Of a stretch of DNA of 64,000 nt, positions 105 through 61,654 are shown in pieces. The stretch's first letter is position 1; every line of letters begins with the position of its first letter. Position numbers and translations under genes: made by a program. Origin of the DNA: a virus; the IMG/VR virus record IMGVR_UViG_3300025131_000006, one strand, 5' to 3'. A model generated the notes under the pieces. It was not told where the DNA came from, did no database searches, and saw only the letters and a program-made list of their open reading frames with translations.

Positions 105-119
105 GTTCAGTCACTGAAC
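105..119. repeat. 15-bp palindrome GTTYAGTNACTRAAC, site 1
   Basis: GTTCAGTCACTGAAC, intergenic. Confidence 0.9.
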
Positions 120-203
120 TTTGGCGCGCGAAGGCGGCTTTTTTTGTGCCCGCAAGCTTGATTACTGATCAAGCACAGATCCCCGACACCAGGAGAACCA
201 GAG

Positions 204-824
204 ATGAGAAGACCAGAGATTGACACGAAGACCCAAATCGAAAGCACACCGAGCTTTGAGCAGCCCACACAGGAAGTGGGTGACGAGATCGCCCACCAGG
301 GAACGTGGGGGTGGCATGCCCTCTCGCAGGTGGACTTCCGCAAGCTCAAGTACGTTCATAAGATGCTGTGGGAGGCGTATTTATTGTGGCGAAGGGGGAA
401 GATTTGCCCGAAGATTGTGCCGTTCGTTACCTACTTCAATGATTGGAGAGAGGTGTGCGAGCATGTGGGGAACATGCATGCACCAAAGGCTCGCATGCGG
501 CAGTATGTGGGCAAGGGCATGCCCATTGCGAAAGGCAATAAGGGCAGCGGAGAGGACTTCACAGGGGCGTGGTTCGAATTGTCGGGGGTGAAGGATACTC
601 GTGTTCATGACGCCGAGGGGCGTCGCTTGAGCGGAGGGTGGGAGGTGTTCTTTAGGGATGCATGGAAGATTGTGGAGGCGTTGCGGTGGGCAAGGGTTCC
701 GCATGACACACCGACGGACGCGGTGACGTTCGTTCCGCCGCACCGGGAGGTGTGGGAGGCGTTGTATGAGAAGCTTACGAGTCCAGCGGCTTACTGTGGT
801 GAATCCACTGTGCAACCCGAATAG
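204..824 (+). CDS. hypothetical protein
   Basis: 206-aa ORF with an AGGAG a few bases upstream; no recognisable motif; converges on and overlaps the 3' end of pncB. Confidence 0.6.
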   Translation: MRRPEIDTKTQIESTPSFEQPTQEVGDEIAHQGTWGWHALSQVDFRKLKYVHKMLWEAYLLWRRGKICPKIVPFVTYFNDWREVCEHVGNMHAPKARMRQYVGKGMPIAKGNKGSGEDFTGAWFELSGVKDTRVHDAEGRRLSGGWEVFFRDAWKIVEALRWARVPHDTPTDAVTFVPPHREVWEALYEKLTSPAAYCGESTVQPE

Positions 825-1956
825 CGTCGGTATCTCCGGTGATCTTTCCCGGTTCGTCCGAGAGCTTGACGACCGGGATTCCGTCGCAGTGCGTCATCTT
901 GATCACGATATTGAGTGGCGTGGGTCCAAAGTTGTTGGTCAGGTTGGTGCCGATACCAAAGGCCACTTGAGCGTCGATCTCGTTGGCTTTGAGGAAGCTG
1001 CTGATGTGACCCACCTGTGTGGGGTTGAGGCCATCGGAGAAGATGAAGGTCTTGGAGGAGAGGTCGATTCCGAGTTCACGGTAGTGTCGGGACATGCGGC
1101 TTGCCCATGCCAAGGGGCACCCGGAGTCGTGGCGAACGCCGCTGTAGCTTCGAGCGAGGAGACCGTCGAAGTCTCGCAGGAACGATTCGGTGCCAAAGGT
1201 GTCTGTGAGGGCGATGCTGACGTTTCCCTTGAAGGTGTCGAGCCAATCTTCCAAGACGTATCGGTTGGCGTACCTCACTCCTTTCAGGGCCGAGTATCCC
1301 ATGAAGATCTCGTGGGCTTGGGTGCCGATCGGTTGCAGGTCATGCCGGTGGGCCAAGTGGACACAGCTTGTGCCCAAAAAGGTGGCGAAGAGGGGGGATC
1401 GTTTCGCGAAAAGATCGACGACTATGTCGTGTCCCAAGCTGCTGTGGCGTCGTCGAAGTCCGAAGTCCGCAACGGGTTGGCCGATCAGTTGAGAGATCTT
1501 CTGCGAGGTTCGGACTCGATAGACTCGTTTTGCGTTCTCGATGGGGTCCACGCAGTGTTGGAAGTAGAGTTCGCTGATTTGGGCCATAAGGGGCACTTCC
1601 CAGAAGATGGCACTCTCCCACGGACCCTCGACCGTGAGGTCCAAGACGCCGTCTTCGGATACGCAGAACTCGACTTGATTGGCGTCGAACTTGAAGTTTC
1701 GCATGTAATCCAAGAAGTGGGGGGGCAAATAGGGGCATCGTTCCCGCAGGAAGGAGATCTCTTCCGGGGTTGTCCGCAGGTACTCCATGCTTTGGAGGAA
1801 GGTGCGGAGGCCATTGACGAACTTGTCAGTATTGAACAGGTATCGGGGGTCACGGTCGAAGAATTTGTATTTTACCGGAGTGCCGGGGCAGTTGCGAAGG
1901 ACGAACGCGGCCATGTTGAACTTGTACAGGTCGTTTTCGAGAATGGATCGGATCAT
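775..1956 (-). CDS. pncB: nicotinate phosphoribosyltransferase
   Basis: PncB motifs in order: SILENDLYKFNM, DFGLRRRHS, GTS, GTQAHE, ALTDTF, GVRHDSG, FSDGL, FGIGTNLT, PLNIVIKM, KLSDEPGK; ATG at 1956 preceded by AGGAG. Confidence 0.95.
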   Translation of the reverse strand: MIRSILENDLYKFNMAAFVLRNCPGTPVKYKFFDRDPRYLFNTDKFVNGLRTFLQSMEYLRTTPEEISFLRERCPYLPPHFLDYMRNFKFDANQVEFCVSEDGVLDLTVEGPWESAIFWEVPLMAQISELYFQHCVDPIENAKRVYRVRTSQKISQLIGQPVADFGLRRRHSSLGHDIVVDLFAKRSPLFATFLGTSCVHLAHRHDLQPIGTQAHEIFMGYSALKGVRYANRYVLEDWLDTFKGNVSIALTDTFGTESFLRDFDGLLARSYSGVRHDSGCPLAWASRMSRHYRELGIDLSSKTFIFSDGLNPTQVGHISSFLKANEIDAQVAFGIGTNLTNNFGPTPLNIVIKMTHCDGIPVVKLSDEPGKITGDTDAIRVAQWIHHSKPLDS

Positions 1957-2011
1957 AAGACGCTCCTGGTGATTGGGTTGCGAATGGCACCTGTGAAGAG
2001 GAAGAGGGGTG

Positions 2012-2133
2012 GGAGAGGGAGAGAACGGAGCCCAAGGACTGTCGCGTCTTGCTTGTGCGCTGCGGTGCCGAGGCACCAACTAAGCCATTGAAGCGTCATT
2101 GCCGTTGGCTTGGGCTCCGTTCTCTCCCTCTCC
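2012..2133 (-). ncRNA. putative structured small RNA, copy 1 (perfect 25-bp closing stem around a 72-nt core)
   Basis: 2012-2036 is the exact reverse complement of 2109-2133; internal hairpin GGTGCCGAGGCACC; directly downstream of the 37-bp promoter-like motif; second copy at 3913-4035 shows covariation. Confidence 0.7.
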
Positions 2134-2140
2134 TGTCGCT

Positions 2141-2177
2141 TGTAATGTCTTTCTCTCCGTTCTATTTTGCGGTGCAC
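2141..2177 (-). promoter_or_regulatory. conserved 37-bp promoter-like motif, copy 1
   Basis: Minus strand GTGCACCGCAAAATAGAACGGAGAGAAAGACATTACA; 7 near-identical copies, each upstream of and co-oriented with small-gene cassettes. Confidence 0.75.
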
Positions 2178-2813
2178 TCACCAAGGGCAGGGAGTGCTTG
2201 GTCTGCTTGTCCGGTTTGCTATGGTCTCCCAAAGTACCTCTTTTTCTGTTTCGGTCAACAGCTTTGCCTCTTGCGAGTACTCCTTCCAGAGGAGGGCATG
2301 TGCTAGATAGCGTCTAGCTCTAGCGAGCGAGGGAGCCGAAGATGTATTTAGCCATGTGTCGCCGCTTATGGCTAATGTTTTGGCGGCAGGGATGGCTCTC
2401 GAATGTGTACGTGTAAGGGTTTCTAGTAGGGAGGCTCGGAGGTTGTTGAAAAAGACACGCCGAAGGTCTCTTGCGAGCTGTGAGAGACCTTCGGAGGGGT
2501 GGGTTCTCCTCATTCCCCTCAAGATCGTTCCGATTCCTGTTCGACAAGGGTTGTGGGGGCTTCGTGCGAACCCGATAATGGGTTTAGGTTGCCTGTGGTC
2601 GCCCTTGGGAGAAAGGTCGAGCATTATGAGTCCGATGGTTTCTGGATCACAGAGCTTCGCTCTTTCTAGCGTTTCCTTTCCGGTAATGGGAGGGGTGTGC
2701 CCCGAAACAGTGACGAGCGAAAAGGTATTGTATTTGTTGAGAACTGTGTAAAAATCTTGCTCTGGGGGAGGAGGCAAGCGTTCGAATGGGAATATGATGG
2801 GGAAGTTTGTCAT
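2178..2813 (-). CDS. hypothetical protein, paralogue of 4083..4709
   Basis: C-terminus WKEYSQEAKLL...LW...TPCPW aligns with WKEIEAHAKLV...MW...TPCPW. Confidence 0.7.
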   Translation of the reverse strand: MTNFPIIFPFERLPPPPEQDFYTVLNKYNTFSLVTVSGHTPPITGKETLERAKLCDPETIGLIMLDLSPKGDHRQPKPIIGFARSPHNPCRTGIGTILRGMRRTHPSEGLSQLARDLRRVFFNNLRASLLETLTRTHSRAIPAAKTLAISGDTWLNTSSAPSLARARRYLAHALLWKEYSQEAKLLTETEKEVLWETIANRTSRPSTPCPW

Positions 2814-3059: not shown

Positions 3060-3074
3060 GTTTAGTGACTGAAC
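3060..3074. repeat. 15-bp palindrome, site 2
   Basis: GTTTAGTGACTGAAC, intergenic. Confidence 0.9.
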
Positions 3075-3084: not shown

Positions 3085-3531
3085 TTAGTCTTCCAAGTAT
3101 CGAAGAGAATTTCCGTTATTCCAAGCGGTGACGGCTTCTTTACTCTCGATAGGGGTGGTCGGCATTTTCTCGGCCATATCTTTGATGAGTTGGGTCATAC
3201 CGTCCACAGCGGGGAGCCCTTTCATGTGGATCTTCATCTTGCATCGGTTCGAGACGAGTACCCAGATAATGCCGTGTTTGTCGGTACGGTGCCGCCAGAC
3301 CCAATACCGGGCCGGGGAGGATTCCTCTCCGGTGTAGCAGAAGCTCTGTCGCCCCCAAAGACGCTTGAAGTAGGTGACCTTATCGAAGATAAAGGCCGAG
3401 CGAACGAGCATGGACAGGTATTCTTCGGCGAAGTCCACGCTCAGGACTCGGTGGGGCCACTGCTCAATCTTGTAGACTTCGTCTTCGGAGAGAGCTTTCT
3501 TGTATTCGCCGCGAAGGAAGGATGCGATCAT
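3085..3531 (-). CDS. hypothetical protein
   Basis: 148-aa ORF packed tightly in the minus-strand operon. Confidence 0.65.
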   Translation of the reverse strand: MIASFLRGEYKKALSEDEVYKIEQWPHRVLSVDFAEEYLSMLVRSAFIFDKVTYFKRLWGRQSFCYTGEESSPARYWVWRHRTDKHGIIWVLVSNRCKMKIHMKGLPAVDGMTQLIKDMAEKMPTTPIESKEAVTAWNNGNSLRYLED

Positions 3532-3534
3532 TAA

Positions 3535-3882: not shown

Positions 3883-3912
3883 TACATAGTCCCTGTAGGA
3901 GAGAAGAGGGAA

Positions 3913-4035
3913 GGTGAAGGAGAGAACGGAGCCCAAGGACTGTCACCGTCTTGCTTGTGCGCTGCGGTACCGAGGTACCAACTAAGCCATTGAAGCGTCA
4001 TGGTCGTTGGCTTGGGCTCCGTTCTGTCTTTCACC
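3913..4035 (-). ncRNA. putative structured small RNA, copy 2
   Basis: 3913-3937 pairs with 4011-4035 (23/25); internal hairpin GGTACCGAGGTACC, a compensatory change relative to copy 1. Confidence 0.7.
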
Positions 4036-4045
4036 CGTTGTCGCT

Positions 4046-4082
4046 TGTAATGTCTTTCTCCTCGTTCTATTTTGAGGTGCAC
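4046..4082 (-). promoter_or_regulatory. conserved 37-bp promoter-like motif, copy 2
   Basis: GTGCACCTCAAAATAGAACGAGGAGAAAGACATTACA on minus strand. Confidence 0.75.
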
Positions 4083-5909: not shown

Positions 5910-5946
5910 TGTAATGTCTTTCTCCTCGTTCTATTTTGAGGTGCAC
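5910..5946 (-). promoter_or_regulatory. conserved 37-bp promoter-like motif, copy 3
   Basis: Identical to copy 2; upstream of the SWIM gene cassette. Confidence 0.75.
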
Positions 5947-5960: not shown

Positions 5961-5975
5961 GTTCAGTGACTAAAC
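5961..5975. repeat. 15-bp palindrome, site 3
   Basis: GTTCAGTGACTAAAC, divergent intergenic region. Confidence 0.9.
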
Positions 5976-7849: not shown

Positions 7850-7861
7850 GTGGGAAAGAAG

Positions 7862-10800
7862 ATGTCCGAGCCTGTTGAAACAGTTGAGTCTCCTGATTTG
7901 AGTCCTTCTCCGGAAGCCCTTGATCAGCATGCATTTATGGAGCAGTACCACAAAGAGGATGGTCCGGGGGAGGGAGGGGAACATCAGGTGCGCGATCTGA
8001 TGCGGGATAACTCTTGGGTGCGAGCAGCACATCTTCCGGTGAATCACAGCGAAGCAGGATGGAAGGCGGGTCGAAGAATGCCAGAGGGCATTGATCCGGA
8101 GCACGGGGAGATGTGGGATGGTTTTCGGACAGCCAACAAACTCTCCGCTTTCCATGGAGAGGAGCCGATCCATCCAGATGATTACAGGGAGATGTTTGAA
8201 TCCGACAGGGAAGCACGGGATCAGCATCGTGAATCTGTTTCGGTCTCCGACGTTCTGGGGGGATTTGGCTTGGAGTTGGGGAGGAAGAGTAAGCTTGACT
8301 CCGAGCCCGTTCAAATGGTTTCGGAGGAGCTTGGTCGCCTCCAAGGGGCGGGGATGTCCTTGTCGTCTCCGGGTTATCGTGGGGCTATAAAGTTAGAGAT
8401 GCAGTCACCAGACGACGATCCTGAGTATTGGGCGTATGGCCTGTTGAGAGGTGAGTACTTACCAAAGAAACACGCAATCCGCGTTGACCGCAGCGGTGAG
8501 TCTTTCGCACATGAGTGGTTTCACGCGGTAGATGGCGACTTGGGTTTGCCGAAAAGTTGGTGGCGCCGGGCAGCGCAAAAAGTAAAGACGGCTTTTGATT
8601 TTACCAAATTTGCGGCATCTAATGGTCAAGGAGATAGGCCAGAGTCGAGACACTTAGAGAGCTTTGTGAAGTTCCTTTCGACGATACCAACTGTGCAAGA
8701 GAGATGGGATCGGTCTTATTCGACGGAGTCAAGACCTGGGATGTTGGATTGGTTGCAAGGGGATATGCCGGAAGATCCTGGAAAGGACTTGGCCGAGTAT
8801 ATGTTGTCTCCGCACGAGGTGTGGGCACGATTCGGGGCACAGTTGGTCTCATACAGGTCGGCTGTTGCAGTTGCTCAAGGTAGATTGGCTCACCCGACCT
8901 TGTTGGCAAACCCATACAGTGAGTTGTTGAAAGATCCAGGTCATTGGACACATGAGGAGTTCTCTCGCATCGTGAAAGTATGGGAGAGATCTCCTCTCTC
9001 GAAGATGTTGGAGTCGGGGATAAGAAAGGCTCTTGGGTTTGGGGTGTTCTTGAAGTCTGAGGGCGAGCAACTGTCGCTGCCGTTCTCTATACGGGCACAC
9101 ACTCCAGGTGGCAGTGCTCCGCCTGCTGTCTCGCCACCAACACCTGTTGCGGATTCACCAGGAAGTTCAGTCACTGAACATTCAGGGACGGGCGGTGCAG
9201 CAGTTTCCAACAGCACGACCACCGATTCCTCTCCTGAAGTACCAACGGAAATAGTCCCGCCAGAACTGACCGGGGAGTGGGAACAGGCGGGAGGTGGCGT
9301 GCGGCATCGCGTAAAGGGCTATGTTCCCGTTATGTCGCATCCAAAATACGAAGAGATCGATCTTCATCCAGGGGCTTCTGCGAACGCGAGAGCCCATGCT
9401 TATCGGAATCGACGGGTATTGGAGGAGCCGAAAGTTGTTGATCATATGCCAATCCATGAGTATGGACACAGCGGCCTACATCAGGAGCGGGGGTGGGACG
9501 ATATACCGGGCCGATCCATACATGATCTGGAGGAGATTAACCGCCGGGGTGTGTCGATGCAGCACAGGTATCCATCGGTGGCATCGGTCGAGTTTGAGCC
9601 GGAAGAGATCTATTCGGCGATGGATGGTTTGCAAGCAGAATTCGAGCATCGATTCCAATCACAGCTTGGGGTGGTTAATAAGCACAAATACAAGGCACAA
9701 GTTCCCGACCACGGATTTTCGTTTGCCAATGAAGAGTCTGTGCGGAGTCCGGCACAGGTGGCAGCGGCGACATCTGCTTCGCTGTGGACAGGCGGGAAGG
9801 TCGAATATGTGCGCAATCCGGACCTTTGGGACTCAAACGAACTCGACAAGGAGAGCGTGGGAGGTCCTGGTGGGTGGGAGGGAGAGAGGACGGAAGAGAA
9901 TTACAGGATGGCGCATCGGGTGATGACACAGTTGGCACAACGTCAGGGTGACGAGACAGTGTCAGTTGCTCGTGGGATGGCCATTCCAAGTCATCACGTG
10001 CCAGGGTTTTTGGACAAGATGGACTTGGGAGACATCTCAAGCTGGACCAAGGGAAGTAATTATCAGCCCACTATGACTTTTGTGAGTCATGCCTTGGATC
10101 ATGGGTTTTGGGACGAAAGTCACCTTGAGTCTTTTGAGCACCAGCTTCGGGAAGGGCTGGAGCAGTCGGGGAACTTTGAGGAAGGAAGCGACGAGGTAGA
10201 TCAATTACTCGAAGAATATTTCGAGCACCACGGCGGGCCATTGGGGAACAATGGTGATGCTGACATTTTTGTTGAATTGGACATGGACAGTGAGGTGCGT
10301 CACTTCCGAGAGAGTAATCTTGGGCATTACTCTTCTGGCATGGCAGCAGTCGTGTTGTTGGCCGATACAAATATTGGAACGACACTGAACCACATCTCAG
10401 CTTATCCGGGTGAGTGGGAGCATGTGCTCGGAGGAGAGGCCACGGTGCGCGACGTGCGAAGGATTCCCTCTTGGGATTCAGGTGAGTGGGACGAGGAAGA
10501 TTTTTGGGACCATGATGAAGATGATTATGCCGCTCGCGAAGATCACCCAGCGTACGGAGACACAGGAGAGAAATTTACGGAATTCACGGGTGCCAATGAC
10601 CATCTTGTAGGTGGTCTCGAAATTTACGTTATCAAAGTCGAAGTGGCGCCCAAGTCCGAAGTAAAGAAGGGTCTCTCTCAAAAGGAGAAGCCCAAGCCGA
10701 AGACGTTCCAAGATTGGGTGGATTGGAACTTGAATATAAATCTTCCTCGAAAAGGCAAGGAGGAGCCGAGCACGAACAAGGACGAGAGAAAAGAGCAGCC

Positions 10801-13285
10801 TGTTATCACCAAGGGACCGACTTGGTCGGGGCATAAGTTGCAAGGGCGTGCGAAGGTCGAGGGTATGGACATCTCGATCGAAAACGCTCGCGGCAGCGTT
10901 CGTTCCGGCGTGGACCCGGATGGGAACAAGTGGGAAACGAAGATGCGCGATCCGTATGGGTATATCCGTCGGACACTTGGCGTGGACGGTGACCACTTGG
11001 ATTGTTTTTTGGGACCGCTTGCTCGGCGCCAAGCCGCAGGAGAGGATGTCGAGATCCCAAAGGTGTGGGTTGTTCATTCAAGAGACATTGAGACGGGTAA
11101 ATACGACGAAGACAAGGTGATGTTGGGGTACAAGGGGAAGAGCGAGGCTGTTTCTGCATTTCGGCATCACTATACTGACCCGGACCAGCACATAGGTCCG
11201 GTGTCCGAGTTCACGATGGAAGAGTTCAAGCATCGGATCTCCGACACGATGGAGAACCCGCGAAGATTGGGTCGTGGACGCTGGGTTAGAAAGTCGGAAG
11301 ATGAGTCGCGGGCTCCAAGCTCTCCCTTCTCTGCCAGTGATGCTTCGCAGAGGGCACCGTACCACGTCCAAGACGAGCCCTATAGAGCACCCCAGGCCCA
11401 CGCACCGACCCAGGACGCAAACACGTCGTGGCAGCCCCATTGGGCTGCTGTGGCCCCCACCGCAGAAGCACCGACGGAAGACAACGTGCCCAAAGAGGAA
11501 CTTGTCCCACAAGAAGAACCCCCTCACGCACCGTGGCGTCACATCAGCTTGCCCCACGAGGAATTATGGGAGGAGACGGCATACGGGGAGACGAACCAAG
11601 CTGAAGCGCAGCTTGATACAGGTGATATACAAGACGAGACGTTTGCACCCGGACCTGAATTCCCAGGACAAGACGACAATCAGGCGTCCGACGACAACGA
11701 AGAGAGTGCTCCGGCAGACCCGAAGCCGACTCAAACGCCAGCGTCGAGGACTCGATTCGCTGCTCAAGAGGCTCGTGAGTCTCGTGCCAAAGCATTCAAA
11801 GAGCAGCACAAGGGCTACGAGATACCGAGCTTGACAGAACTTTTGCATCACAACGAAGAGTACGATCACGACATCCACGTGAGCCGTGGGTGGTTTGGCC
11901 AGACTTATGTGGACAACAAGTGGAGTCCAGAGGGAGGAAGTCAAGGTCAAGTACTCGTGAAGTACGGGATTATGTCAGAAGAGGAGCAAGCCATTGCCAC
12001 GGAAGTGGGGGAGTTGGGGATTGGCCCGGTGGTTTTGGACTCCCACGCGGGTCTCGTAGACATCGATGCCAACAGTCCAGGTGTTCGGCAGCTAGAGAGC
12101 TACATCAGCCAAATGCGAGATCGTGGGATTGTCCGGGGCGACTCCGGGGCAGAGCACGAAGGGATGGGGTTGAACACAAACCATCCGTTTGCTGTGCCGG
12201 ACAGCGGGCGCCATAACCGACGAGCCCACTTGGGAGATGCCCTTGACGAGCACAGGGGCGAGTATGACTTCGACATCGAGGAGCGTCGGAATGAGCTTTT
12301 CGAAGGCACGTTGGGGTCTTTGGGCATTGAAGCATACAATGACGATGACCTGATGGCGGATTACGAGCCAAAGGATGTTTTGTATGAAGTGCAGGGGATG
12401 GAAGAGGATGACCCCGACGCTCCTTATAACTCAGACATCTATTGGGGAGAACCGGAGTTCGGTGCCTACTTGGCGGATGTGGTTCGCATGGTGGGTGGAG
12501 ATGAGTATGCAGTCGAAGATGTGGAGCAGACGTACGAAGAGTTGATGGAGATGCAGCGCTTCGCGGACGGCGAAACGAACGGAGACCTGGACGATCACGT
12601 GTTGGAGGCGGGCTTGGAGATGGGCTTGTACCACACGACGTCGATGCTTGAGCGAATCCGGAGCTTACTTAACATAAACAAGCTCCCTGTTGAGAACTTC
12701 CAAATGGGCGCTCGCATGGCGATGGAGTACTTGGAAGGGTACGAGCCGGTGGATGGTCTCTTCGGGGATCAGTACAGTTTCGACTCCGGCGACGTGGAGC
12801 CAGAGACAGCGGACGACGCGGACAAGTGGGTGCGGGCGAGCTTGGGCATCTTGGATATGATGTCCATTTTTCACGGAGAGGGCCTGACCCACGGAGATTT
12901 ACACACGTATAACGTGATGTGGGACGGAGAGGTGGGGCGTTTGATTGATTTCGGGATGGCGCAACGGTACGACCAAGACTCATTGGATTGGGGAGCCTAC
13001 CAGAACTTGCTTGTGAACTTACAGAAGGGTCTGAAGACGATGAGCATGCGGGGAGCAGCGGAGGCGGGCTTGTCGGGAGACAGTCGGATTGCAATGGAAG
13101 CCGGGATGCACAATCTTAGACAAGAGGTCAATGAGCTTGCAGGCAAAGTCACGGATGCACTGACGGACGCTCCAAGAGGAAAGCAGCGGCTGACTATGTA
13201 CTATGGCGACTTTGCCGAGATGGTTCGCGAGAAGACCTTGGATGTCTCCCAAGCGTACCATGAGCTACGATCGAAGTATCTGTAA
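7862..13285 (+). CDS. large polyvalent protein: zincin + ADP-ribosyltransferase + inorganic pyrophosphatase + protein kinase-like domain
   Basis: FAHEWFHAVD..EVWARF (zincin); ARGM..ISSWT..EWEHVL (R-S-E ART); ISIEN.RGS.RSG.D.DG..W....YGYIRRT.G.DGDHLD..DEDKVMLG (polyvalent-type PPase); MEYLEG..HGDLHTYNVM..IDFG (kinase). Alternative GTG start at 7850. Confidence 0.85.
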   Translation: MSEPVETVESPDLSPSPEALDQHAFMEQYHKEDGPGEGGEHQVRDLMRDNSWVRAAHLPVNHSEAGWKAGRRMPEGIDPEHGEMWDGFRTANKLSAFHGEEPIHPDDYREMFESDREARDQHRESVSVSDVLGGFGLELGRKSKLDSEPVQMVSEELGRLQGAGMSLSSPGYRGAIKLEMQSPDDDPEYWAYGLLRGEYLPKKHAIRVDRSGESFAHEWFHAVDGDLGLPKSWWRRAAQKVKTAFDFTKFAASNGQGDRPESRHLESFVKFLSTIPTVQERWDRSYSTESRPGMLDWLQGDMPEDPGKDLAEYMLSPHEVWARFGAQLVSYRSAVAVAQGRLAHPTLLANPYSELLKDPGHWTHEEFSRIVKVWERSPLSKMLESGIRKALGFGVFLKSEGEQLSLPFSIRAHTPGGSAPPAVSPPTPVADSPGSSVTEHSGTGGAAVSNSTTTDSSPEVPTEIVPPELTGEWEQAGGGVRHRVKGYVPVMSHPKYEEIDLHPGASANARAHAYRNRRVLEEPKVVDHMPIHEYGHSGLHQERGWDDIPGRSIHDLEEINRRGVSMQHRYPSVASVEFEPEEIYSAMDGLQAEFEHRFQSQLGVVNKHKYKAQVPDHGFSFANEESVRSPAQVAAATSASLWTGGKVEYVRNPDLWDSNELDKESVGGPGGWEGERTEENYRMAHRVMTQLAQRQGDETVSVARGMAIPSHHVPGFLDKMDLGDISSWTKGSNYQPTMTFVSHALDHGFWDESHLESFEHQLREGLEQSGNFEEGSDEVDQLLEEYFEHHGGPLGNNGDADIFVELDMDSEVRHFRESNLGHYSSGMAAVVLLADTNIGTTLNHISAYPGEWEHVLGGEATVRDVRRIPSWDSGEWDEEDFWDHDEDDYAAREDHPAYGDTGEKFTEFTGANDHLVGGLEIYVIKVEVAPKSEVKKGLSQKEKPKPKTFQDWVDWNLNINLPRKGKEEPSTNKDERKEQPVITKGPTWSGHKLQGRAKVEGMDISIENARGSVRSGVDPDGNKWETKMRDPYGYIRRTLGVDGDHLDCFLGPLARRQAAGEDVEIPKVWVVHSRDIETGKYDEDKVMLGYKGKSEAVSAFRHHYTDPDQHIGPVSEFTMEEFKHRISDTMENPRRLGRGRWVRKSEDESRAPSSPFSASDASQRAPYHVQDEPYRAPQAHAPTQDANTSWQPHWAAVAPTAEAPTEDNVPKEELVPQEEPPHAPWRHISLPHEELWEETAYGETNQAEAQLDTGDIQDETFAPGPEFPGQDDNQASDDNEESAPADPKPTQTPASRTRFAAQEARESRAKAFKEQHKGYEIPSLTELLHHNEEYDHDIHVSRGWFGQTYVDNKWSPEGGSQGQVLVKYGIMSEEEQAIATEVGELGIGPVVLDSHAGLVDIDANSPGVRQLESYISQMRDRGIVRGDSGAEHEGMGLNTNHPFAVPDSGRHNRRAHLGDALDEHRGEYDFDIEERRNELFEGTLGSLGIEAYNDDDLMADYEPKDVLYEVQGMEEDDPDAPYNSDIYWGEPEFGAYLADVVRMVGGDEYAVEDVEQTYEELMEMQRFADGETNGDLDDHVLEAGLEMGLYHTTSMLERIRSLLNINKLPVENFQMGARMAMEYLEGYEPVDGLFGDQYSFDSGDVEPETADDADKWVRASLGILDMMSIFHGEGLTHGDLHTYNVMWDGEVGRLIDFGMAQRYDQDSLDWGAYQNLLVNLQKGLKTMSMRGAAEAGLSGDSRIAMEAGMHNLRQEVNELAGKVTDALTDAPRGKQRLTMYYGDFAEMVREKTLDVSQAYHELRSKYL
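9165..9179. repeat. 15-bp palindrome, site 4 (inside CDS linker)
   Basis: GTTCAGTCACTGAAC encoding SSVTEH. Confidence 0.9.
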
Positions 13286-15048: not shown

Positions 15049-15063
15049 GTTCAGTCACTAAAT
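15049..15063. repeat. 15-bp palindrome, site 5
   Basis: GTTCAGTCACTAAAT (1 mismatch). Confidence 0.85.
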
Positions 15064-15084
15064 TCTCACCCCAAGGTGATTCCA

Positions 15085-16716: not shown

Positions 16717-16731
16717 GTTTAGTCACTGAAC
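16717..16731. repeat. 15-bp palindrome, site 6
   Basis: GTTTAGTCACTGAAC, abuts TGA stop. Confidence 0.9.
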
Positions 16732-21708: not shown

Positions 21709-21745
21709 TGTAATGGCTTTCTCCCCGTTCTATTTTGCGGTGCAA
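21709..21745 (-). promoter_or_regulatory. conserved 37-bp promoter-like motif, copy 4
   Basis: TTGCACCGCAAAATAGAACGGGGAGAAAGCCATTACA on minus strand. Confidence 0.75.
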
Positions 21746-21762: not shown

Positions 21763-21777
21763 GTTCAGTCACTGAAT
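21763..21777. repeat. 15-bp palindrome, site 7
   Basis: GTTCAGTCACTGAAT (1 mismatch). Confidence 0.85.
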
Positions 21778-21864
21778 ATTGTGCTTGGATTCTGTACATA
21801 TCTATGGTGATTCGTGTATGGTGTCGGTGGGGTACAGGGCAGCATCACTCTTGGAGTTATTGAT

Positions 21865-24800
21865 ATGGAATTGGTTTGCATCGAATGCTTATCAGGTGGC
21901 TTCGGCTTGTTTGTGAAAGGTGCGGGGCACAAGTACATCAAGCGCGAGTTGGTTTCGACTTCTCCAAGAAAGTATCGGTATTGGTACAAGCTCCCCAGAG
22001 GAGCCTTGGTGCATGATGACGCCGTTCACGTGGGCGCCAAGTTCCGTCATGGTTCCGGTGACGATCGCGGGCACTATCACGTAGACGAGGTCCATGATGA
22101 TGGCTCGGTCAGCGTTACCCACGATGAGACCGGACATACGACCAAAGTGTCTGCACACAAGCTCAAAGACATGATCCACACGGGTGATCATGATCTAGGT
22201 GAATCTCCCCAAGAGAAAGGGGAGCGGGTGCTCCAAAGCTACCAACAGGCTCTCCAGACGGGCACAGACAAGCAGATCTCGCTGCGCTTACATGATCTGA
22301 TGGAGCACGTGGCGGCTTATCCGCAAGAGTCGGTGTCGTTGGGTTATGCGTTGGCTCAAGCAGATCCAGGCGTCAAAGAGGCCATGTTGTCATTGGCTCA
22401 TGGTGGGGTGTCCACGTTCAAGACGCACAAGTCCACAAAGAAGCGTGGAAAGAAGGGCGAGAAAACAAAACACGGTGGAGCACACGTCGAGGTGACGTTG
22501 GAGCACCGTTCGTATGGAAAGATCGTCGAGGATTCGGCCAAGCAGTTGGAGCAGTTGGATGAGTCGGCGATTGTTCAGGAGATCCAAGAGAAGACGGGCG
22601 CCACAGAAGACGAAGCCAAGCAGGCGTTCTTGGCTGTAAAGAACAGCTTGGCAAAGAAGCAGAACTCTTCGAATGAGGGGGCATCGTATCTGGAGCCCTT
22701 CACGATAGACGGCGAGTCTGTTCCGGGCGTTTTTGTTTACAGTGGGAGTAATGAGAGCAAGAAGGGAACTCTTTATGTTCGCGGACTGATCGAGAACGAA
22801 GACGTGTTGGACCCTGGGTTTGGACCGGCTCCGAAGTCTGCGAAGCCGGGTAAGGTTCTCGCTCGTGCTCAGGCTGTCATGCGGTCCAAGTTGGACATAG
22901 GCCGGGTGCGTCAATACACGTTGACGCCGAGTGCTTTGTACGAGTGGTCACACGCTCCGGCAACCGGGGCAGACTTCAAAGAGGTTGATGGAGGGGCTGC
23001 TGATCAGGATAGCCTAGCTAGCCAGGCAGATTCCGGGTCTAAAAGTTCAGTCACCAAACAGTCTCACAAGGAAAGTTCGGACCTGGCTAATAGCCAGGTC
23101 GCCGAAGAGTCACCAGATGAGTTGGACGAGAGCTTGCCTTCCGGCAGCGAGGGTCTTCAATACGAGGGTGCCAAAAAAGGAGGTCAGTACCCCGGAGCAA
23201 TCGTGAGTCACCCAGACTTCCCCGACAAGCAGTTTATGGTTAAGCCAGGACGGGATTTTTTGGTGCACGCAGAAGTTGCCGGTACGAATCTGGCGGCACG
23301 AGTGCTCGGCGACGATGTAGCCAAGGCACGTCATATCGATGTAGGTGGAGCCCCGCAATCGATCGGAAAGGGCCAGCAACACGCATCGATTCAAGAGATG
23401 CGCGAGAACGACGGAGATTTGGTCTCCAATCGATATGACAGTCACATGATCCGGAATCTCCCGCAAGAGTTGAAACAAGATGTGCTGCGTCATCAGGTGG
23501 CGACGTGGTTGGTGGGTGATTCGGACGCTCACGCCGGGCAGTTCTTGCGTGGGACCGACGGGAGTTTGATTCGGATTGACTTGGGTCAAGCGTACAAGCA
23601 CATCGGCAACGATCGGCTCGATCCGAGCTGGCAGCCGAACAATCCCCCGCCGGTAGTATCCCATCTGTTGGTGGGCGATTACGCAAAGGGCCAGGGAGAG
23701 TTGGACTTCACGGACCCCCGGATCAAAGAGGCAGTGGAGAGAGCCGAGTCCATCACAGACGATGAGGTGGCACAAGCAGTCCAGCCGTATGCCGACGGTT
23801 TGGAGAAATCGGGTATTCGCTCTGCGAAAGAGACGATCGCGAAGGCAGTGGCTCGAAAGAACGGCATCCGGTCTGACTTCGAGCAGTACTTCTCCAAGGC
23901 ACTCTCGCAGCGACACGGCAAGCCGATGACGTTTTCGTTTGAGGACGGCATCTCGGAGGGCGGCGTCTCTAAGGGTTTTGGGGTGTGGAGCAAGAGTGGC
24001 ACTCCGGTGGAAGATGCAGACGACTCGACTGAAGCACCGACGAGGTTTCACGGTGCCAAGTTGTTTTATATAGAGCCTTTGATGGAAGAGCCCAAGGGTT
24101 TCGGGGCTCTCACGAAGGGCAGTAAGCATAAGTATGTGAAGCGAGAAGTTCGTATTGGACCTGATGGCAAGAAGCGTTATCGGTATTGGTATAAGCTCCC
24201 CAAGGGACATATCGTGACCGACGACTCTCTTCATATAGGTGCCAAGTTCCGCCACGGTAAGGACGAGGAGCGGGGGCACTTTCATATCGAGAGCATAAAT
24301 CCGGATGGGACAATGAACGTTCGGCATGATGAGACCGGAGAGTTCAAGAAGGTCACGCTCGACAACTTGCGCGGGATGATCCACACGGGAAGCCACGACA
24401 TCGGAGAGAACCCTGCGAGCAAGCTCCAGCGGTTGTTGGAGTCTTTGCACTTAGCGTTGCAGCACGGGACGAAAAAGCAGTACAATAAGCTGTACGAGCA
24501 TGTGATGGAGCACGTGGAGGCGTTTCCTCATATCGCGTTCGAGGGGAACGAGCCTGTCACATCGGACCATGTGCAAGATAAAATGGCGGATGTGTATTCG
24601 GCGGGCAAGCTGTCAGAGCACTTGGACGACCACGAGCACTTGTCGGATGAGGTGAAGTACCAGGGCTTCTTTGCGGAAGCCAAAGCATTGGCCGAAAAGT
24701 ATCATGATGCCTTGGTGGAAAAAGCTAGAGAGGCGGGTGCTAAGGGGTCTTCGTACACATATTGGATTATCAATGAGGCAATCTTTAAAAAGTTAAACAA

Positions 24801-27800
24801 GGAGCAGTCTGCTCTCTTCGAAAAGTACAAAGATGCACCAAAAAGTGTAAAGACATCGGTAGTTGCGTCCCACTTGGGGTCTTCTGTAAAGGGTGTTTCC
24901 CCGCTGATCTCCGAGCTTCAAGCAGCCCATGCGGAAGGGAGTCAGTCGTTTAATGCCAGCGTTGACGAGGTTCACAAGAAGGTTGTTCATATTCGAGGGA
25001 TGGTGGAGTCGGGTCAGCTTTACGCCGATATTTGGAAAGAGCTTGAGGATCTGCGAGAGCATGTGCTCAGCTTGTCGGGTGAGGTCCAACACGAGTTGGA
25101 AGATTCGTACGACTTCCTGTGGACGACAGAGGGCTTGAAAGGAAAGCTGAAGCAGTGGAAGGGGCAAACCTCGTACGGGACGCATGAATATGTCGATCTC
25201 GTGCATATGGGCTTCAATGGTGTCCTGAAAGACATGTCGAAGGCGAAGGCTCTTCAGTACATCAAAGACAACGTGACGTGCGAGTATCACTCGGAGGAAG
25301 AGGCTCTCAAGATCGTGGGAGACTCGTACGATGCGACGGCAGCGACGTTTTTGAATGTCCAAGCCAAGCTCGATTATTTGAAAGACTTGATCGAGTCGGA
25401 GTCAGACAACGCGGATATTTGGGCAGCGGCTGAAGTGCTGTTTATGGAGCTTTCTTCGACAGGGTTGTTTAAGCACCCGGCGTTCGAGGAGATGAAGACG
25501 TGGAAGAAAATCTCGAAGTTTGTGAAAGAGGGCATCGAGGAAGCAGCGAAGTCGCCTACGGACAGTCCGCAAATTCCTGGGTACAAGTATGATGCTCTTT
25601 ACCCCATGGGCTTGGGTGTCAACACTACAGTCTTCGGCACGGTAAAGAAGGAGAACCCCTACGTTAAGCTTGTGAGCGGTAGCGATACCACAAGCCACGA
25701 GGTGTGGGCAGAGGGGATTGATACAAAAGGGAACCCTGCGTACATCCATGTGGGAACAATGGTTCCTGACGAAACATACCCCGATTTGATGCATTGCTTT
25801 ACTCCTGCGGGGAATGAGATCAAGTCAAAGGGCAAGATACCCAAGGGCCTCAAGTGGGGAGGGAACTTGCTTGTTTGGTTCAAGGTGAACGTTACCGAGC
25901 CAAAAGAAGAGTTCACCGATGGCGCCGAGGAGGAGTATCAAGCGTTCTGGGGAGCGACGCCCTTGGGTATAATGACGGGCAAAGGTACACCGAGCGACGC
26001 ACCGGAGCCAGGGTCTGAGTCTGAGTCGGGCGAGAGTTCAGTGACTGAACCGTCGGATGCTGCTCCGGATAGTTCTGATTCTGATGCAGAGCCAAAACCA
26101 GGTAGCCCGGACACAGCATCCGAGACGAGTGCTCCAGCACCGACGCCCAAGAAGAAAAGCATCTTGCAGGGCAAGAAGGCGGTGAAGCATGGGACATTGG
26201 TGACAGGTGGCCAAGTTGCCAAGAAAAAGAACAAAGAGACAGGCGGGTGGCACATTGTTGCGGAAGCCCAACATGGGAACAAGACCGTCGCAAAGGTGAT
26301 TGGCTCGATCCACAAGAAGGGGAGCAAGTGGTACGCGGATAATTCGCCGGAGATAGGAGGCTTCAAGACAGCGGGTGCGTTGATTGAGGTGATGCAGAAC
26401 AAGGCGTTGGATGTCCAAAACAACCCGCCTGCTCCTCCGGTGTCAGAGCAGACACCCCAAGACAAGGTGTCTCAGCTTATATCAGAGTTGAAGACCGTCC
26501 TCGATGCTGGCGATATGTCGGATGATGTGATCTCCACATTCTTTTACAAGATCGAGCAATTGGCGGCCAATAATTACGGTTTGATGCATGATGGCCAGCC
26601 TGTGACCAATAAGCCGTTCTTGTATCAGTTGGTGATGGATGCGGGAACTGCGGGCAACTTAGACAATGCCGAAGGATGGAAGGTCTGGTCTGAGCACAAG
26701 AATAAAGACATCAACGCAGCCGTGTCAAAGCCCAAGGCTCCTGCCGATGTCTGGATGGCTATTCAGAAGGAGACCAACGCAGCCGCGTACAAGAAGCAAC
26801 AGGCCGAAGTGGCGGATAAGTACAAGGCCCATGGCCACCTCATCGAATCCCCACCGGCTATGGGTGGGTTTGGAGCACTCCAGCAAGACAACACATATGC
26901 AGATGGGTCAGTTGGGGCTATTCGTGCGATCCACGATCATGTTCGAGAGAAGTACAACCTCGGCAGCATCTCAGCGAAGCATCACAACAAGCGAAAAGAT
27001 GTCATCGCAGCGTTGTTCCCGGCGGAAAACTCCACGGTGAGTAGCTGCGCGGCGACTTGGACGACGACATCAAACCCCATCGGGTACGGTGGGAGCTTGA
27101 ACAATAACGTAATGTTTCGGTTCTTCTCGATCGCTATGGGCTTGCGGAACTTAGAGGAGGAGATCAGCAAGCTCAAGGATATTTATGGGATGAAACCGCA
27201 GCACGAGCAGCGGTTTCGCCAGGAGTACGCAGAATTTGTCGATCCCTCTCACAGCAGGTTCCGCCAGTTCGAGTGTTTGTTGTTACGTCATGTGGTCTGG
27301 CGAGATGCCGTGATGGCAAATGGCGGAGAGGGAGTAGATACGGCAACGGGCACGCTTCACCTCTTCCGAGGCATGGGCAAACTCTCGAAGGATTATGTTG
27401 ATGGTCTGAGAGAAGGAAACTTGGGTCAGACTTCGGCTGCAAGTTGGTCTACCGTAAAGAGCGTTGCCAACAGCTTCAGCGGCGGGGGCTTTGGAAGCTC
27501 TAGCTATTCGGTAGTGTTTGAGGCCGATAGTGTTCCGATTGAGCACTGTCTCTTGGGTAAACACACAGAAGGAATTGGGTTCGGCAGCGAGAAAGAGGTG
27601 ATTGTTGGAACAGCCCACAAGTCGAAGACCGTTCATGTTTACGTGAAGCCACCAGGGATGGATAAAGAAACAGTGATGCAGGAGAGGAACCTCCCCGGTG
27701 GTACTGTTGTAACGCACAAGTCTCTTGCTCGCGGCGGATTTATCTTGGGCGTGGTGAAGAATTCGGGCTTCCGGACTATTTCGAAGAGCCGGTATGGATC

Positions 27801-28305: not shown

Positions 28306-28320
28306 GTTTAGTGACTGAAC
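28306..28320. repeat. 15-bp palindrome, site 10
   Basis: GTTTAGTGACTGAAC. Confidence 0.9.
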
Positions 28321-31471: not shown

Positions 31472-31486
31472 GTTTAGCGACTGAAC
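31472..31486. repeat. 15-bp palindrome, site 11
   Basis: GTTTAGCGACTGAAC (1 mismatch). Confidence 0.85.
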
Positions 31487-34600: not shown

Positions 34601-34737
34601 CGATCTTGGCGTACCACAGCTTGTCCGTGAAGATTTCGGGTGACATTGTGCGGATCAAGTTCGGGTGCTTCCCGAAAGCAGCACTCAACTTCGCCTTGGT
34701 TGACATGGCGTTCCAATTGCCGCAACTCTCGGCTTAA
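31636..34737 (+). CDS. contractile tail sheath protein (1033 aa, large insertions)
   Basis: N-term FHGKVIVHPSATAYVD; C-term FRINRGYTT...INVWEIRNDL...FIG...I.TFL.......GII...ISGD.V.I.F...P. Confidence 0.85.
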   Translation: MARSVVFHGKVIVHPSATAYVDTTGMAQPGVDLSQVAGCIAEAPQGQPGILHAFAEADNAVVYFGEGSDAAEAVRLLLEEPKDDRVDQGAALVFVYCPSQNQQAEYWLAMTPKYEVNGTTLVGAGGYEVTVEAAADRVGSTHAYIDVLDTALTGIQPNQLKDMIVEISQGWGKGQQRQVLSSAASPVAGRQRLKLRLDQTWNITPFASGVVTKVKLLVPSIQLLSSEWGPGGNLNDGYFRPEDTNDQDKGYKFLHRYNYNEEVTAVPVGGTNDPAFEIHVDPTGGSVTPTDWIRPQPVGIEGTTKTARSGVDHTQSASTGLALNGGSLGVANDHQNRWIAVTGTDRTANGGYYNATVSCVAAVTGTIPAGSVLKDPTGKLATFVKVEGVEVHFAQPTGQFGSGVKLDLIPPDVNNFVTVDAVPNHSPAAAGGWVQFTYGETVTATGGGTGKFIEETDTGELILGTIVGTIADGDTLSGATAVRDGGTPILKSTDALYASHVEAIGNIYKLASHTSTVATLTDKLPNPLMSGLGFVPGSGLQYKVMTLTDVELQVTGKSGKAESLAIVLKDSKSSPAWTQTLITVDLTKYNTYQSLRDHLNESIWVLSRYGNGRAPNINPERFDFGQLADHWQANLAFGDGPGATYGQRSKYGIVRDNVQKVVGWLNQNHGRFTAVRATGGFDGGSAGYASSFGGAEPDTQTVHQQYYNGLSGDSIVRKASDTADPFYPISWAHGFEQLRTNDTIRVDIPCASTPRRGWATTDVETLLTDFKAHLDLCELERVYRNGYFGLSAPLESTATTTGLLEWVKKINQESMSLCGQEILETTTRGIPEWMPVWALGCKTAAMQLGSDLGEGFSLKHISADNIRSPLGDWEPTNRVQARKASLGGLLYVKPLRGSFRINRGYTTHVSSDNLARTDINVWEIRNDLTRGIQILIEDMFIGEGTGSRAEGVRFKARASPGSIRGEITTFLAEKRAEGIIVDSEINGKPILAYHSLSVKISGDIVRIKFGCFPKAALNFALVDMAFQLPQLSA

Positions 34738-35955: not shown

Positions 35956-35992
35956 TGTAATGGCTTTCTTCCCGTTCTATTTTGAGGTGCAC
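35956..35992 (-). promoter_or_regulatory. conserved 37-bp promoter-like motif, copy 5
   Basis: GTGCACCTCAAAATAGAACGGGAAGAAAGCCATTACA on minus strand. Confidence 0.75.
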
Positions 35993-36013: not shown

Positions 36014-36028
36014 ATTTAGTGACTGAAC
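36014..36028. repeat. 15-bp palindrome, site 12
   Basis: ATTTAGTGACTGAAC (1 mismatch), next to a TTGACA box. Confidence 0.85.
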
Positions 36029-36029: not shown

Positions 36030-36058
36030 TTGACAACAGTATATCGGACTCGTATGCT
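36030..36058 (+). promoter_or_regulatory. sigma70-type promoter
   Basis: TTGACA-17 nt-TATGCT upstream of 36129. Confidence 0.65.
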
Positions 36059-38574: not shown

Positions 38575-38589
38575 GTTCAGTCACTGAAC
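38575..38589. repeat. 15-bp palindrome, site 13
   Basis: GTTCAGTCACTGAAC, abuts TAA stop. Confidence 0.9.
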
Positions 38590-44392: not shown

Positions 44393-44407
44393 GTTCAGTT
44401 ACTAAAC
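44393..44407. repeat. 15-bp palindrome, site 14
   Basis: GTTCAGTTACTAAAC, abuts TGA stop. Confidence 0.9.
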
Positions 44408-46622: not shown

Positions 46623-46637
46623 GTTCAGTTACTAAAC
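46623..46637. repeat. 15-bp palindrome, site 15
   Basis: GTTCAGTTACTAAAC. Confidence 0.9.
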
Positions 46638-59695: not shown

Positions 59696-59710
59696 GTTTA
59701 GTGACTGAAC
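59696..59710. repeat. 15-bp palindrome, site 19
   Basis: GTTTAGTGACTGAAC. Confidence 0.9.
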
Positions 59711-60883: not shown

Positions 60884-60997
60884 GGTGCCCTCCTGTGAGT
60901 TGAGGCTTTTCGGCCCGGTGAGTCGGCTTGTTCAACAGTATCTATATAAGAAAGGGATTCGGGTACTCGGACACGGATTGACCAAGTTTTGCAGAAA

Positions 60998-61034
60998 GTG
61001 CACCTCAAAATAGAACGGGGAGAAAGCCATTACA
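60998..61034 (+). promoter_or_regulatory. conserved 37-bp promoter-like motif, copy 6
   Basis: GTGCACCTCAAAATAGAACGGGGAGAAAGCCATTACA. Confidence 0.75.
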
Positions 61035-61082
61035 AGCGAACCGAAAAGCCCCGAATATTCCACATGTCGGAGAAAAGAAAAG

Positions 61083-61313
61083 ATGTTGCAGCAACTCCAA
61101 ACAATCCTGACGCCCGGTCTCATGATCGGAATCATCTCTGTCCTCTTGTTGATCTTGTGGGTTATTCGCGGATTCCGCCGCAACAGCCCCTTTGTCATCC
61201 TGTGTGCGTATTTCGGGCTCACCATCGTGGGCGGCATCGTGTGGGTTATCTGTATGGCCGGTCCTTGGACGATGGTTTCTTACTGTGTGATCTCGAAAAA
61301 GTGTGGAGGTTGA
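61083..61313 (+). CDS. small two-TM membrane protein
   Basis: Two hydrophobic helices; GGAG RBS. Confidence 0.65.
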   Translation: MLQQLQTILTPGLMIGIISVLLLILWVIRGFRRNSPFVILCAYFGLTIVGGIVWVICMAGPWTMVSYCVISKKCGG

Positions 61314-61314
61314 G

Positions 61315-61623
61315 ATGAGCGGATTTTGGGCAGAATATAACGAGAAGATGGAAGCCGGTGCTATTGGAAGCCAGAGCGACCTCCGCCGAGAGTTGGCTCT
61401 CTTGAACTGCAATACCCTCTTGTTCTTGTTGGGCAAAGAAGACTCGGAAGATGCAGCGTTTTTTGCCGAACTCACCACCGAACTCAAGGACGTGATCCGA
61501 GAGAATGGCGAGTCCGCACACATCCGAATCCGCAGCCCCGAAGGCTTCACCCCCAAGTTCACCTTGGGCAACATCCACAGAGGATTGCAGTCTCGCGGTG
61601 TCGAGCCAATAAGGCTCCTGTAG
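61315..61623 (+). CDS. hypothetical protein
   Basis: GGAGG RBS. Confidence 0.65.
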   Translation: MSGFWAEYNEKMEAGAIGSQSDLRRELALLNCNTLLFLLGKEDSEDAAFFAELTTELKDVIRENGESAHIRIRSPEGFTPKFTLGNIHRGLQSRGVEPIRLL

Positions 61624-61639
61624 TCCTAGTCCTGTGTGA

Positions 61640-61654
61640 GTTCAGTCACTGAAC
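61640..61654. repeat. 15-bp palindrome, site 20
   Basis: GTTCAGTCACTGAAC, extends to GTGAGTTCAGTCACTGAACTCAC. Confidence 0.9.

Follow-up and report, generated by a model that had tools for sequence, protein, structure and literature searches.

What does a 15-bp palindrome do when it recurs about every 3 kb along a phage genome? The question is raised by the IMG/VR virus record IMGVR_UViG_3300025131_000006, of which a stretch of 64 kb (in the following, the window) was analyzed, and by the palindrome GTTYAGTNACTRAAC that is dispersed over it. An initial annotation, made from the sequence alone, had proposed that the copies form a genome-wide lattice for a DNA-binding protein. Our hypothesis, held with moderate confidence on the grounds of sequence comparison, is that the palindromes act at the DNA level, that selection acts on their spacing, and that they would be read by a phage-encoded dimeric protein.

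With at most one mismatch allowed, 20 copies of GTTYAGTNACTRAAC were found in the window, compared to 0.01 expected from dinucleotide shuffles, and every start listed in the initial annotation was recovered at its exact coordinate. Fifteen copies are perfect and five carry one mismatch. As scanning the window with two or three mismatches revealed no further site, the palindrome family is sharply bounded. Its layout is 7-1-7: all 15 exact matches have a spacer of one, none was found at the other spacers from 0 to 7, and lone half-sites occur three times in the window versus about 12 expected from composition. Positions 1–15 are almost invariant except for Y4/R12 and the center, and the flanks show a weak bias, toward A on the upstream side and toward T on the downstream side. 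At positions 4/12, the site counts are 6 for C/G, 7 for T/G, 7 for C/A, and 0 for T/A. For T/A, about 2.5 sites would be expected under independent halves (P ~0.07, hand arithmetic), so that the earlier description of half-sites varying independently is acceptable.

According to heuristic gene calls (codon scoring with additions by hand, no curated annotation standing behind them), 17 of the 20 sites are intergenic, which matches the number given previously, and the remaining three (9165, 23045, and 26036) lie within open reading frames (ORFs) of 1811 and 1999 amino acids (aa). Intergenic spacers have a median length of 45 nt with a site and of about 11 nt without one. Since site-bearing spacers are longer than the otherwise minimal spacers, the site is an insertion that costs genome space.

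The center base is C or G in all 13 sites at 0–43 kb and A or T (W) in all five sites of the baseplate module (44–57 kb), three of which are identical (GTTCAGTTACTAAAC). This W-center subtype may have arisen by local copying or module exchange, the donor being, for example, a relative whose motif differed slightly.

The gaps between the sites range from 1282 to 5884 bp, with a mean of 3239 bp and a coefficient of variation (CV) of 0.41. A CV of 0.41 or less was reached in none of 4000 simulations under uniform placement and in none of 4000 under placement at gene junctions, where 54 junctions were available and the split of 17 intergenic to three intragenic sites was preserved. Under this junction null, the probability of a minimum gap of at least 1282 bp was 0.0003, and that of a maximum gap of at most 5884 bp was 0.002. 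The evenness claimed at the outset thus stands, and it also stands against the junction shuffle suggested along with it, the sites being more regular than random gene junctions. That site spacing overrides gene boundaries is statistically established.

Syntenic contigs were recovered via the sheath protein, and two of them were extended (m102 and m103). The sheath of six related contigs is 40–46% identical to the window sheath. Their palindromes, which are listed in Table 1, recur every 2–4 kb, and the mean gaps across relatives are 2.1–3.8 kb. The spacing in m102 (CV 0.43, P = 0.002) is as even as in the window. For 52 normalized gaps pooled from six contigs, the CV was 0.47 versus 0.90 for exponential gaps, a value reached in none of 20000 simulations. 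In all 7-1-7 variants a G:C pair is retained at positions 6/10, with strand flips. Two intragenic copies in m102 show a symmetric double change (CTTCACTGAGTGAAG), and asymmetric variants of the G.A type were seen in the relatives. The motif differs among the relatives while architecture and density are kept, which argues for a reader that is encoded by the phage and co-evolves with its sites. In agreement with the phage-encoded system proposed initially, these lineage-specific variants imply a reader from the phage and not from the host, and the divergence between relatives defines a co-evolving cis/trans pair.

The positions of the sites drift. Orthologous genes of the window, m102, and m103 were paired by BLASTP. 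The junction before the sheath gene holds a site in the window and in m102 and none in m103, where sites are found within the sheath gene itself and within the gene before it. In the stretch bounded by the orthologues of the tail genes of 267 and 613 aa (G6 and G11), the sites of the window fall at the G6–G7 and G9–G10 junctions, those of m102 at G6–G7, at G7–G8, inside G9, and at G10–G11, and those of m103 inside G8 and at G8–G9. Intragenic sites account for nine of 15 in m103 and four of 14 in m102, with perfect copies among them. Drifting positions and a kept spacing point to a function based on distance, not to promoters, terminators, or gene-specific operators. This is in line with the earlier remark that the array is unlike a regulon with few operators, as sites move between orthologous junctions and enter coding sequence.

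The palindrome is symmetric at the DNA level. Within plus-strand transcription units, the T/G form was counted five times and the C/A form six times; because a C/A site reads as T/G on the opposite strand, the asymmetric form is equally frequent in both orientations. An RNA hairpin under selection would favor U.G over C.A on the sense strand, and the lack of such a preference argues against a hairpin. The plus-strand RNA of four C/A sites (44393, 46623, 49025, and 56490) formed no hairpin, with z-scores from -0.2 to +1.3. In a scan of 36–56 kb, one of six sites was terminator-like, and the counts of promoter-like and terminator-like sequences were at shuffle level. The palindromes also do not correspond to intrinsic terminators, which have a G+C-rich stem and a U tract at unit ends. 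The palindrome is most simply explained by a symmetric dimer that reads double-stranded DNA. The preference for a dimeric DNA reader over an RNA hairpin in the initial annotation was well placed, given the absence of strand bias, the single spacer length, and the unfolded C/A sites.

Taken as cis-acting double-stranded DNA sites, the palindromes would be read by a homodimer encoded in the phage lineage itself. Selection would maintain one site per ~2–6 kb whatever the gene content, and sites would be fitted into the interval that separates a stop codon from the following ribosome-binding site or, in long genes, into the coding sequence. With one site per ~2–6 kb, the whole genome lies within a few kb of some site. 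The likeliest use would be that of loading or target sites, from which the activity of a protein spreads over, or marks, the entire phage chromosome. Spreading from sites has analogues in the parS, OB, and NBS sites of ParB-family clamps.

The best candidate for the reader is found in the relatives, outside the part of their sequence that is homologous to the window. About 17 kb upstream of the m103 sheath gene lies a conserved module that is also present in three further relatives. In the contig L112 the order is QueD (PTPS), QueE (radical SAM), DUF6884, QueC, a 265-aa protein, and a ParB_N protein (246–280 aa); the other relatives carry part of this set each, and three small genes of no assigned family come after the ParB_N gene. 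QueC, QueD, QueE, DUF6884, and ParB_N were identified by Pfam in the relatives, none of them inside the window. The module implies, as far as predicted gene content goes, 7-deazaguanine modification of DNA in this jumbo-phage lineage. DUF6884 is related to YaaA/DUF328 (PMC11701544), the family to which DpdC belongs (PMC5699537).

The ParB_N protein (P0007 family) occurs in all four relatives in which the region was recovered (L110, L112, L113, and L197); the pairs of motif and protein recovered comprise three motifs for four ParB_N proteins. No ParB-fold protein was found in the 32 kb of m102. Where ParB has the GERRxRA box, the protein has GEHRWRA; among PDB sequences it is matched best by Noc and Spo0J, and its structural model (predicted local distance difference test score, pLDDT, 83) was aligned by Foldseek over ~180–205 columns with Noc, ParB, and KorB chains, including the KorB structures 8qa8 and 8qa9. 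Compared to the rest of the family, the jumbo-phage clade has an insertion of ~30 aa and a C-terminal (C/H)CPxCGH knuckle, and may be specialized. A copy of the motif lies directly upstream of the pair formed by the 265-aa and ParB_N genes in L112 and L197, and in m103 within the 3' portion of the ParB gene. A ribbon-helix-helix C-terminus of the non-jumbo family members, judged by eye, had no Pfam support and was discarded.

The 265-aa protein has a full-length BLAST match (E 2e-20) to a gene of Arthrobacter phage Mufasa8 annotated as 'queuine tRNA-ribosyltransferase'. In Mufasa8, this gene stands immediately before a ParB_N homologue and is accompanied by FolE, QueC, QueD, and QueE genes. 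On this match and the gene context, with no family match, the protein is here called DpdA-like by inference.

In bacteria, DpdA works with DpdB, a dimer of the ParB fold, to exchange a G inside a palindrome at a rate of about one per 1000 nt (PMC10164549). DpdA is TGT-like, and together with DpdB it inserts preQ0 at the palindromic G (PMC10164549). The module of the relatives resembles the bacterial Dpd system in its predicted DpdA-like protein, ParB-fold nucleoside triphosphatase (NTPase), DpdC-like protein, and preQ0 genes. It differs in that GEHRWRA places the phage ParB-fold protein with the ParB/Noc type, whereas DpdB is of the DndB-like DGQQR type; furthermore, no Dpd module was seen in the window, and no lattice is known for Dpd. 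Tentatively, the ParB/Noc/KorB-fold NTPase encoded right after the DpdA-like gene may be the specific reader, an assignment that we consider possible at best. The lattice would then direct either a sparse and even modification or the loading of a clamp to phage DNA only.

Several observations weigh against this picture. The evenness in m103 is weak (CV 0.67, P = 0.07). In the window, four of the 20 sites lie 15–25 nt from a promoter-like motif (TGCACCTCAAAATAGAACG), which leaves room for a regulatory role. The conserved helical region that follows the NTPase domain is rather acidic across the ParB_N family, which is unexpected for a DNA reader that determines specificity. The sequence of the 265-aa protein has no match in Pfam, NCBIfam, or PDB, and its low-confidence model (pLDDT 60) matches generic TIM barrels only. 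The DpdA-like/ParB pair of Mufasa8 is present in a phage with no dispersed palindrome. At least three copies of any palindrome were found in two of 64 IMG/VR loci with a ParB_N homologue versus one of 51 controls, from which three loci of two contigs found by the motif search itself had been set aside. Both positive loci are ordinary promoter operators, with TAAACCCGGGTTTA between -35 and -10. A DNA-binding gene that co-occurs with the motif, which the initial annotation had suggested looking for across related phages, is therefore not provided by the ParB_N family as a whole: it is not generally tied to palindrome arrays, and a general association was rejected.

The 14-bp palindrome TAAACCCGGGTTTA occurs in three strong promoters (L128:9368-13653 and L130:13529-18068) of ~60-kb phages that encode a ParB_N homologue. 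It resembles the Noc-binding site, and its copies may be KorB-like operators.

Unlikely, but deserving of serious attention, is an array for global control of transcription, in which a phage repressor or silencer would use the palindromes as operators to tune or block transcription genome-wide, after the models of the Cluster A stoperators, the P1 C1 operators, and KorB at OB sites. The reader would be identical to the one proposed above and only the output different. The intergenic position of most window sites fits this explanation, as do the four sites upstream of the conserved promoter-like motif and the one that abuts a sigma-70-like promoter. KorB and OB moreover combine dispersed palindromes with long-range silencing (PMC11790492). 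However, gene-specific control predicts neither even spacing nor drift between orthologous junctions, and many sites of the relatives lie deep within genes. Most window sites are located only 13–30 nt before a start codon in long co-directional operons with no promoter-like sequence near, and neither an integrase nor a repressor was seen in the parts examined.

A more elaborate use of the lattice, which we consider improbable, would make it a kind of password. The ParB-fold clamp and the DpdA-like transglycosylase would load at the lineage-specific palindromes, or act on them, and mark phage DNA as self, either by sparse 7-deazaguanine marks or by a protein coat, with a maximum spacing of ~6 kb and on phage DNA only. 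A translocating nuclease, be it a Dpd-like restriction enzyme of the host or the phage's own enzyme for degrading host DNA, would then always meet a self mark before cutting. Since it would be the mark rather than the sequence that the sensor reads, the sites and their reader could co-evolve freely.

Phage-specific promoters or terminators, forming a lattice of transcript boundaries in the fashion of T7 promoters, are a very unlikely explanation. In its favor, promoters of the T7 type likewise show a fairly even distribution and lie in part within genes, sites are found just past stop codons and 13–45 nt before start codons, and A/T-rich flanks make some of them, such as 38575, terminator-like. 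A perfect palindrome, however, has no direction, its stem is short and AT-rich, and on the sense strand one site in three has a C.A mismatch; in the 20 kb scanned, one of six sites was terminator-like and the promoter and terminator counts were at shuffle level, as given above. Perfect sites within essential structural genes of the relatives, where a terminator would do harm, and the unconserved positions at orthologous genes also speak against it.

It is hardly credible that a host factor, such as a host regulator or nucleoid protein, binds the sites. An identical palindrome is dense in two unrelated actinophage-like contigs of 67% GC from one metagenome, for which a shared external reader would be possible. 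Against this, close relatives of the window phage use other palindromes, and only single isolated matches were present among the matches listed from 185,579 prokaryote species genomes; the two high-GC contigs have no proteins in common with the window and differ from it by 13 points in GC.

Equally hard to credit is a selfish or recombinational repeat, either a miniature mobile element or a hotspot that shuffles modules. The run of five adjacent W-center sites, three of them identical, would suit such a repeat. Nevertheless, there are no flanking repeats or target duplications, conservation is restricted to the 15 bp and the weak A/T flanks, and the even spacing together with in-frame intragenic copies indicates selection on position rather than spread.

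An RNA hairpin serving as processing site, mRNA stabilizer, or translational operator is already largely refuted: the sites are transcribed within operons and adjoin ribosome-binding sites, and the C/G and T/G variants can pair into a stem of 6 bp capped by a loop of 3 nt (-8 to -10 kcal/mol when the flanks are included), but seven of the 20 sites have C.A on the plus strand, the four of these that were tested do not fold, T/G is not favored, and the relatives show the G.A-type variants.

The spacing-selected, dimer-read DNA lattice can be compared with several known systems. The nearest published case is the 17-bp dyad repeat TGTTCGGNNNCCGAACA of Cluster O mycobacteriophages such as Corndog (PMC4351075). 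Corndog has 34 copies, about one third of them in genes and with no transcriptional orientation, and their function is reported there as unknown (PMC4351075). Cluster O and the window have in common 7-bp inverted arms, a short free center, tens of copies, and unoriented sites both between and within genes. By contrast, the 34 Corndog sites are uneven (CV 1.07) and crowded at the right end, and the Cluster O motif is invariant within the cluster, whereas that of the window lineage diverges in each relative. The hosts and phage types are unrelated. Corndog gp90 (L199:4424-5932) is an orphan ParB-like protein with ParB_N and a GQRR box; the repeat section and repeat discussion of the Cluster O paper draw no link from gp90 to the dyad repeats (PMC4351075).

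The stoperators of Cluster A mycobacteriophages resemble the window sites in being dozens of short sites across a phage genome, mostly in small intergenic gaps. They are asymmetric and oriented with transcription, as summarized in the Cluster O paper (PMC4351075), whereas the window sites are palindromic and unbiased (5 vs. 6). The window lattice is thus not a member of the stoperators.

KorB is a CTP-dependent (cytidine triphosphate) sliding clamp of the ParB family that loads at dispersed OB palindromes and has long-range effects (PMC11790492). TTTAG is a half-site common to the OB core TTTAGCGGCTAAA and to OA, the site of KorA (GTTTAGCTAAAC; PMC11790492). The OB sites of RK2 and the window sites are alike in that short palindromes are scattered along a mobile replicon, with TTTAG as a shared half-site. 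Unlike the window sites, those of OB are linked to promoters and to partition, and an even spacing is not reported for them; furthermore, KorB has a ParA partner (IncC) and KorA, neither a ParA nor a KorA being seen here. The IncP plasmid RK2 has ~12 OB sites per 60 kb.

The systems parS/ParB, NBS/Noc, SBS/SlmA, and matS/MatP also use 12–16-bp palindromes that are read by dimers and mark a whole DNA molecule or domain. The window sites share with parS, OB, and NBS the layout of a 13–16-bp palindrome with a fixed spacer that suits a symmetric dimer. The palindrome of the contig L104, TGTTAGN4CTAACA, is as long as parS and matches its outer bases (TGTT/AACA). The differences are that parS and matS are clustered and the others irregular, and that all are far sparser, on the order of tens of kb; parS, NBS, SBS, and matS are systems of host chromosomes, and none is known that is even at 3 kb. 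In genomes of lytic-type phages, such arrays, OB included, are not known.

Dispersed phage palindromes are known from Cluster O and have never been explained, and arrays of ParB-family sites are known from chromosomes and plasmids, not as even genome-wide lattices in lytic-type jumbo phages. What is new here is that the lattice is regular and that it persists while its motif diverges, along with a candidate link to a module for DNA modification. If the link to ParB and 7-deazaguanine is true, it would reveal how a virus can direct an activity to the whole of its own DNA and to no host DNA, and sparse deazaguanine marking would gain its first sequence rule. If it is false, the lattice would still offer a clean system, open to testing, in which to search for a new DNA reader that acts genome-wide. 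The coordinates of the features are summarized in Table 1.

Table 1. Palindromes and associated features; positions refer to the window unless a contig is named
Feature	Sequence or type	Position or contig	Context or copy number
Palindrome	GTTCAGTCACTGAAC, C/G type	105..119	intergenic, 84 nt before ORF at 204
Palindrome	T/G type	3060..3074	10 nt past stop of minus-strand ORF 3085-3531
Palindrome	C/A type	5961..5975	divergent intergenic region; 15 nt from promoter-like motif 5927-5945
Palindrome		9165..9179	inside 1811-aa ORF (7850-13285)
Palindrome	1 mismatch	15049..15063	12 nt before ORF 15076
Palindrome		16717..16731	abuts stop of ORF 15076-16716
Palindrome	1 mismatch	21763..21777	divergent intergenic region; 18 nt from promoter-like motif 21726-21744
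Palindrome	1 mismatch	23045..23059	inside 1999-aa ORF (21814-27813)
Palindrome	perfect	26036..26050	inside 1999-aa ORF (21814-27813)
Palindrome		28306..28320	immediately 5' of ORF 28321
Palindrome	1 mismatch	31472..31486	between 313-aa gene and sheath gene
Palindrome	1 mismatch	36014..36028	divergent intergenic; 22 nt from promoter-like motif 35973-35991; sigma-70-like promoter next, at 36030-36058
Palindrome		38575..38589	abuts stop; 28 nt before 739-aa gene; only terminator-like site of the six scanned
Palindrome	GTTCAGTTACTAAAC subtype	44393..44407	abuts stop; no plus-strand RNA fold
Palindrome	GTTCAGTTACTAAAC subtype	46623..46637	
Palindrome	W-center subtype	49025..49039	
Palindrome	reverse complement of 49025 site	52043..52057	
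Palindrome	GTTCAGTTACTAAAC subtype	56490..56504	
Palindrome		59696..59710	13 nt before ATG at 59724
Palindrome		61640..61654	25 nt before plus-strand promoter-like motif at 61680
Promoter-like motif	TGCACCTCAAAATAGAACG	2158-2176(-), 4063-4081(-), 5927-5945(-), 21726-21744(-), 35973-35991(-), 60999-61017(+), 61680-61698(+)	
Sheath gene		31636-34737	
Baseplate J-like gene		46659-48311	
Palindrome of relative m102	CTTTACTNAGTAAAG	L111+L102	14 copies in 32 kb
Palindrome of relative m103	CTTTAGANTCTAAAG	L110+L103; also L105 and L112	15 copies in 32 kb (m103)
Palindrome of relative	CTTTACANTGTAAAG	L197	1 copy in 4.2 kb
Palindrome of relative	TTCAGANTCTGAA, xTTCAGANTCTGAAx	L113	1 exact and 2 one-mismatch copies in 13 kb
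Palindrome of relative	TGTTAGN4CTAACA	L104	5 copies in 14 kb
Palindrome of relative	GTTGAN5TCAAC	L106	3 copies in 9 kb
Module of the relatives		L110:1-3566, L112:6790-12099, L197:393-3686, L113:934-4816	
67%-GC contig with palindrome	GTTCAGTNACTGAAC	IMGVR_UViG_3300037193_000597 (L006, L085, L070, L007)	
67%-GC contig with palindrome	GTTCAGTNACTGAAC	IMGVR_UViG_3300037193_000179 (L084, L079, L090)	

The identical palindrome of the two 67%-GC contigs, GTTCAGTNACTGAAC, has 26 copies in one contig of 36 kb and nine in the other; both contigs encode an actinophage-like terminase. The copies are much denser than in the window and mostly lie 10–25 nt before the ribosome-binding sites of small genes. 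The palindrome is probably convergent in these contigs, the alternative being a shared family of readers. The ParB_N gene of a 67%-GC contig was rejected as a reader: it is an ordinary terminase-linked 'ParB-like nuclease' of marginal similarity to P0007.

The window has 55% G+C and a strong, constant, positive GC skew. It is filled by plus-strand ORFs, interrupted by short minus-strand cassettes. The gene set (sheath, baseplate J-like, and baseplate wedge) is that of a contractile-tailed phage, and very large virion-type proteins are encoded, one of them with an InPase domain. No match to the window in DNA or protein was found among 50,697 deposited phage records, exact look-ups of two window proteins gave no record either, and one relative of the window phage was counted in IMG/VR. 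As the relatives exist solely as metagenomic contigs, of up to 228–234 kb, the window belongs to an uncultured lineage of jumbo-type phages. Among ~30 window proteins scanned, no DNA-binding domain was found, which agrees with the lack of a visible cognate protein stated in the initial annotation.

The promoter-like motif is present in seven copies with a 19-nt core and extends to ~43 nt, two copies being 100% identical. It heads cassettes of small genes or RNAs, and a palindrome is located 15–25 nt upstream of four of the copies. A non-coding segment of ~130 nt is duplicated (2007-2136 and 3908-4038, 89–90% identical), each copy behind a promoter-like motif.

In the 1811-aa ORF, the InPase domain covers residues 998–1129 (E 2e-38) and the C-terminus is weakly kinase-like; in the relatives, InPase is a separate gene of ~155 aa. 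The 1999-aa ORF contains an internal duplication (21973-22079 vs. 24178-24284, 72% over 107 nt). Finally, the ORFs at 61894-61938(-) and 62306-62350(-) both terminate in the tag L-x6-[RK][RK]-x2-S-[DE]-W.

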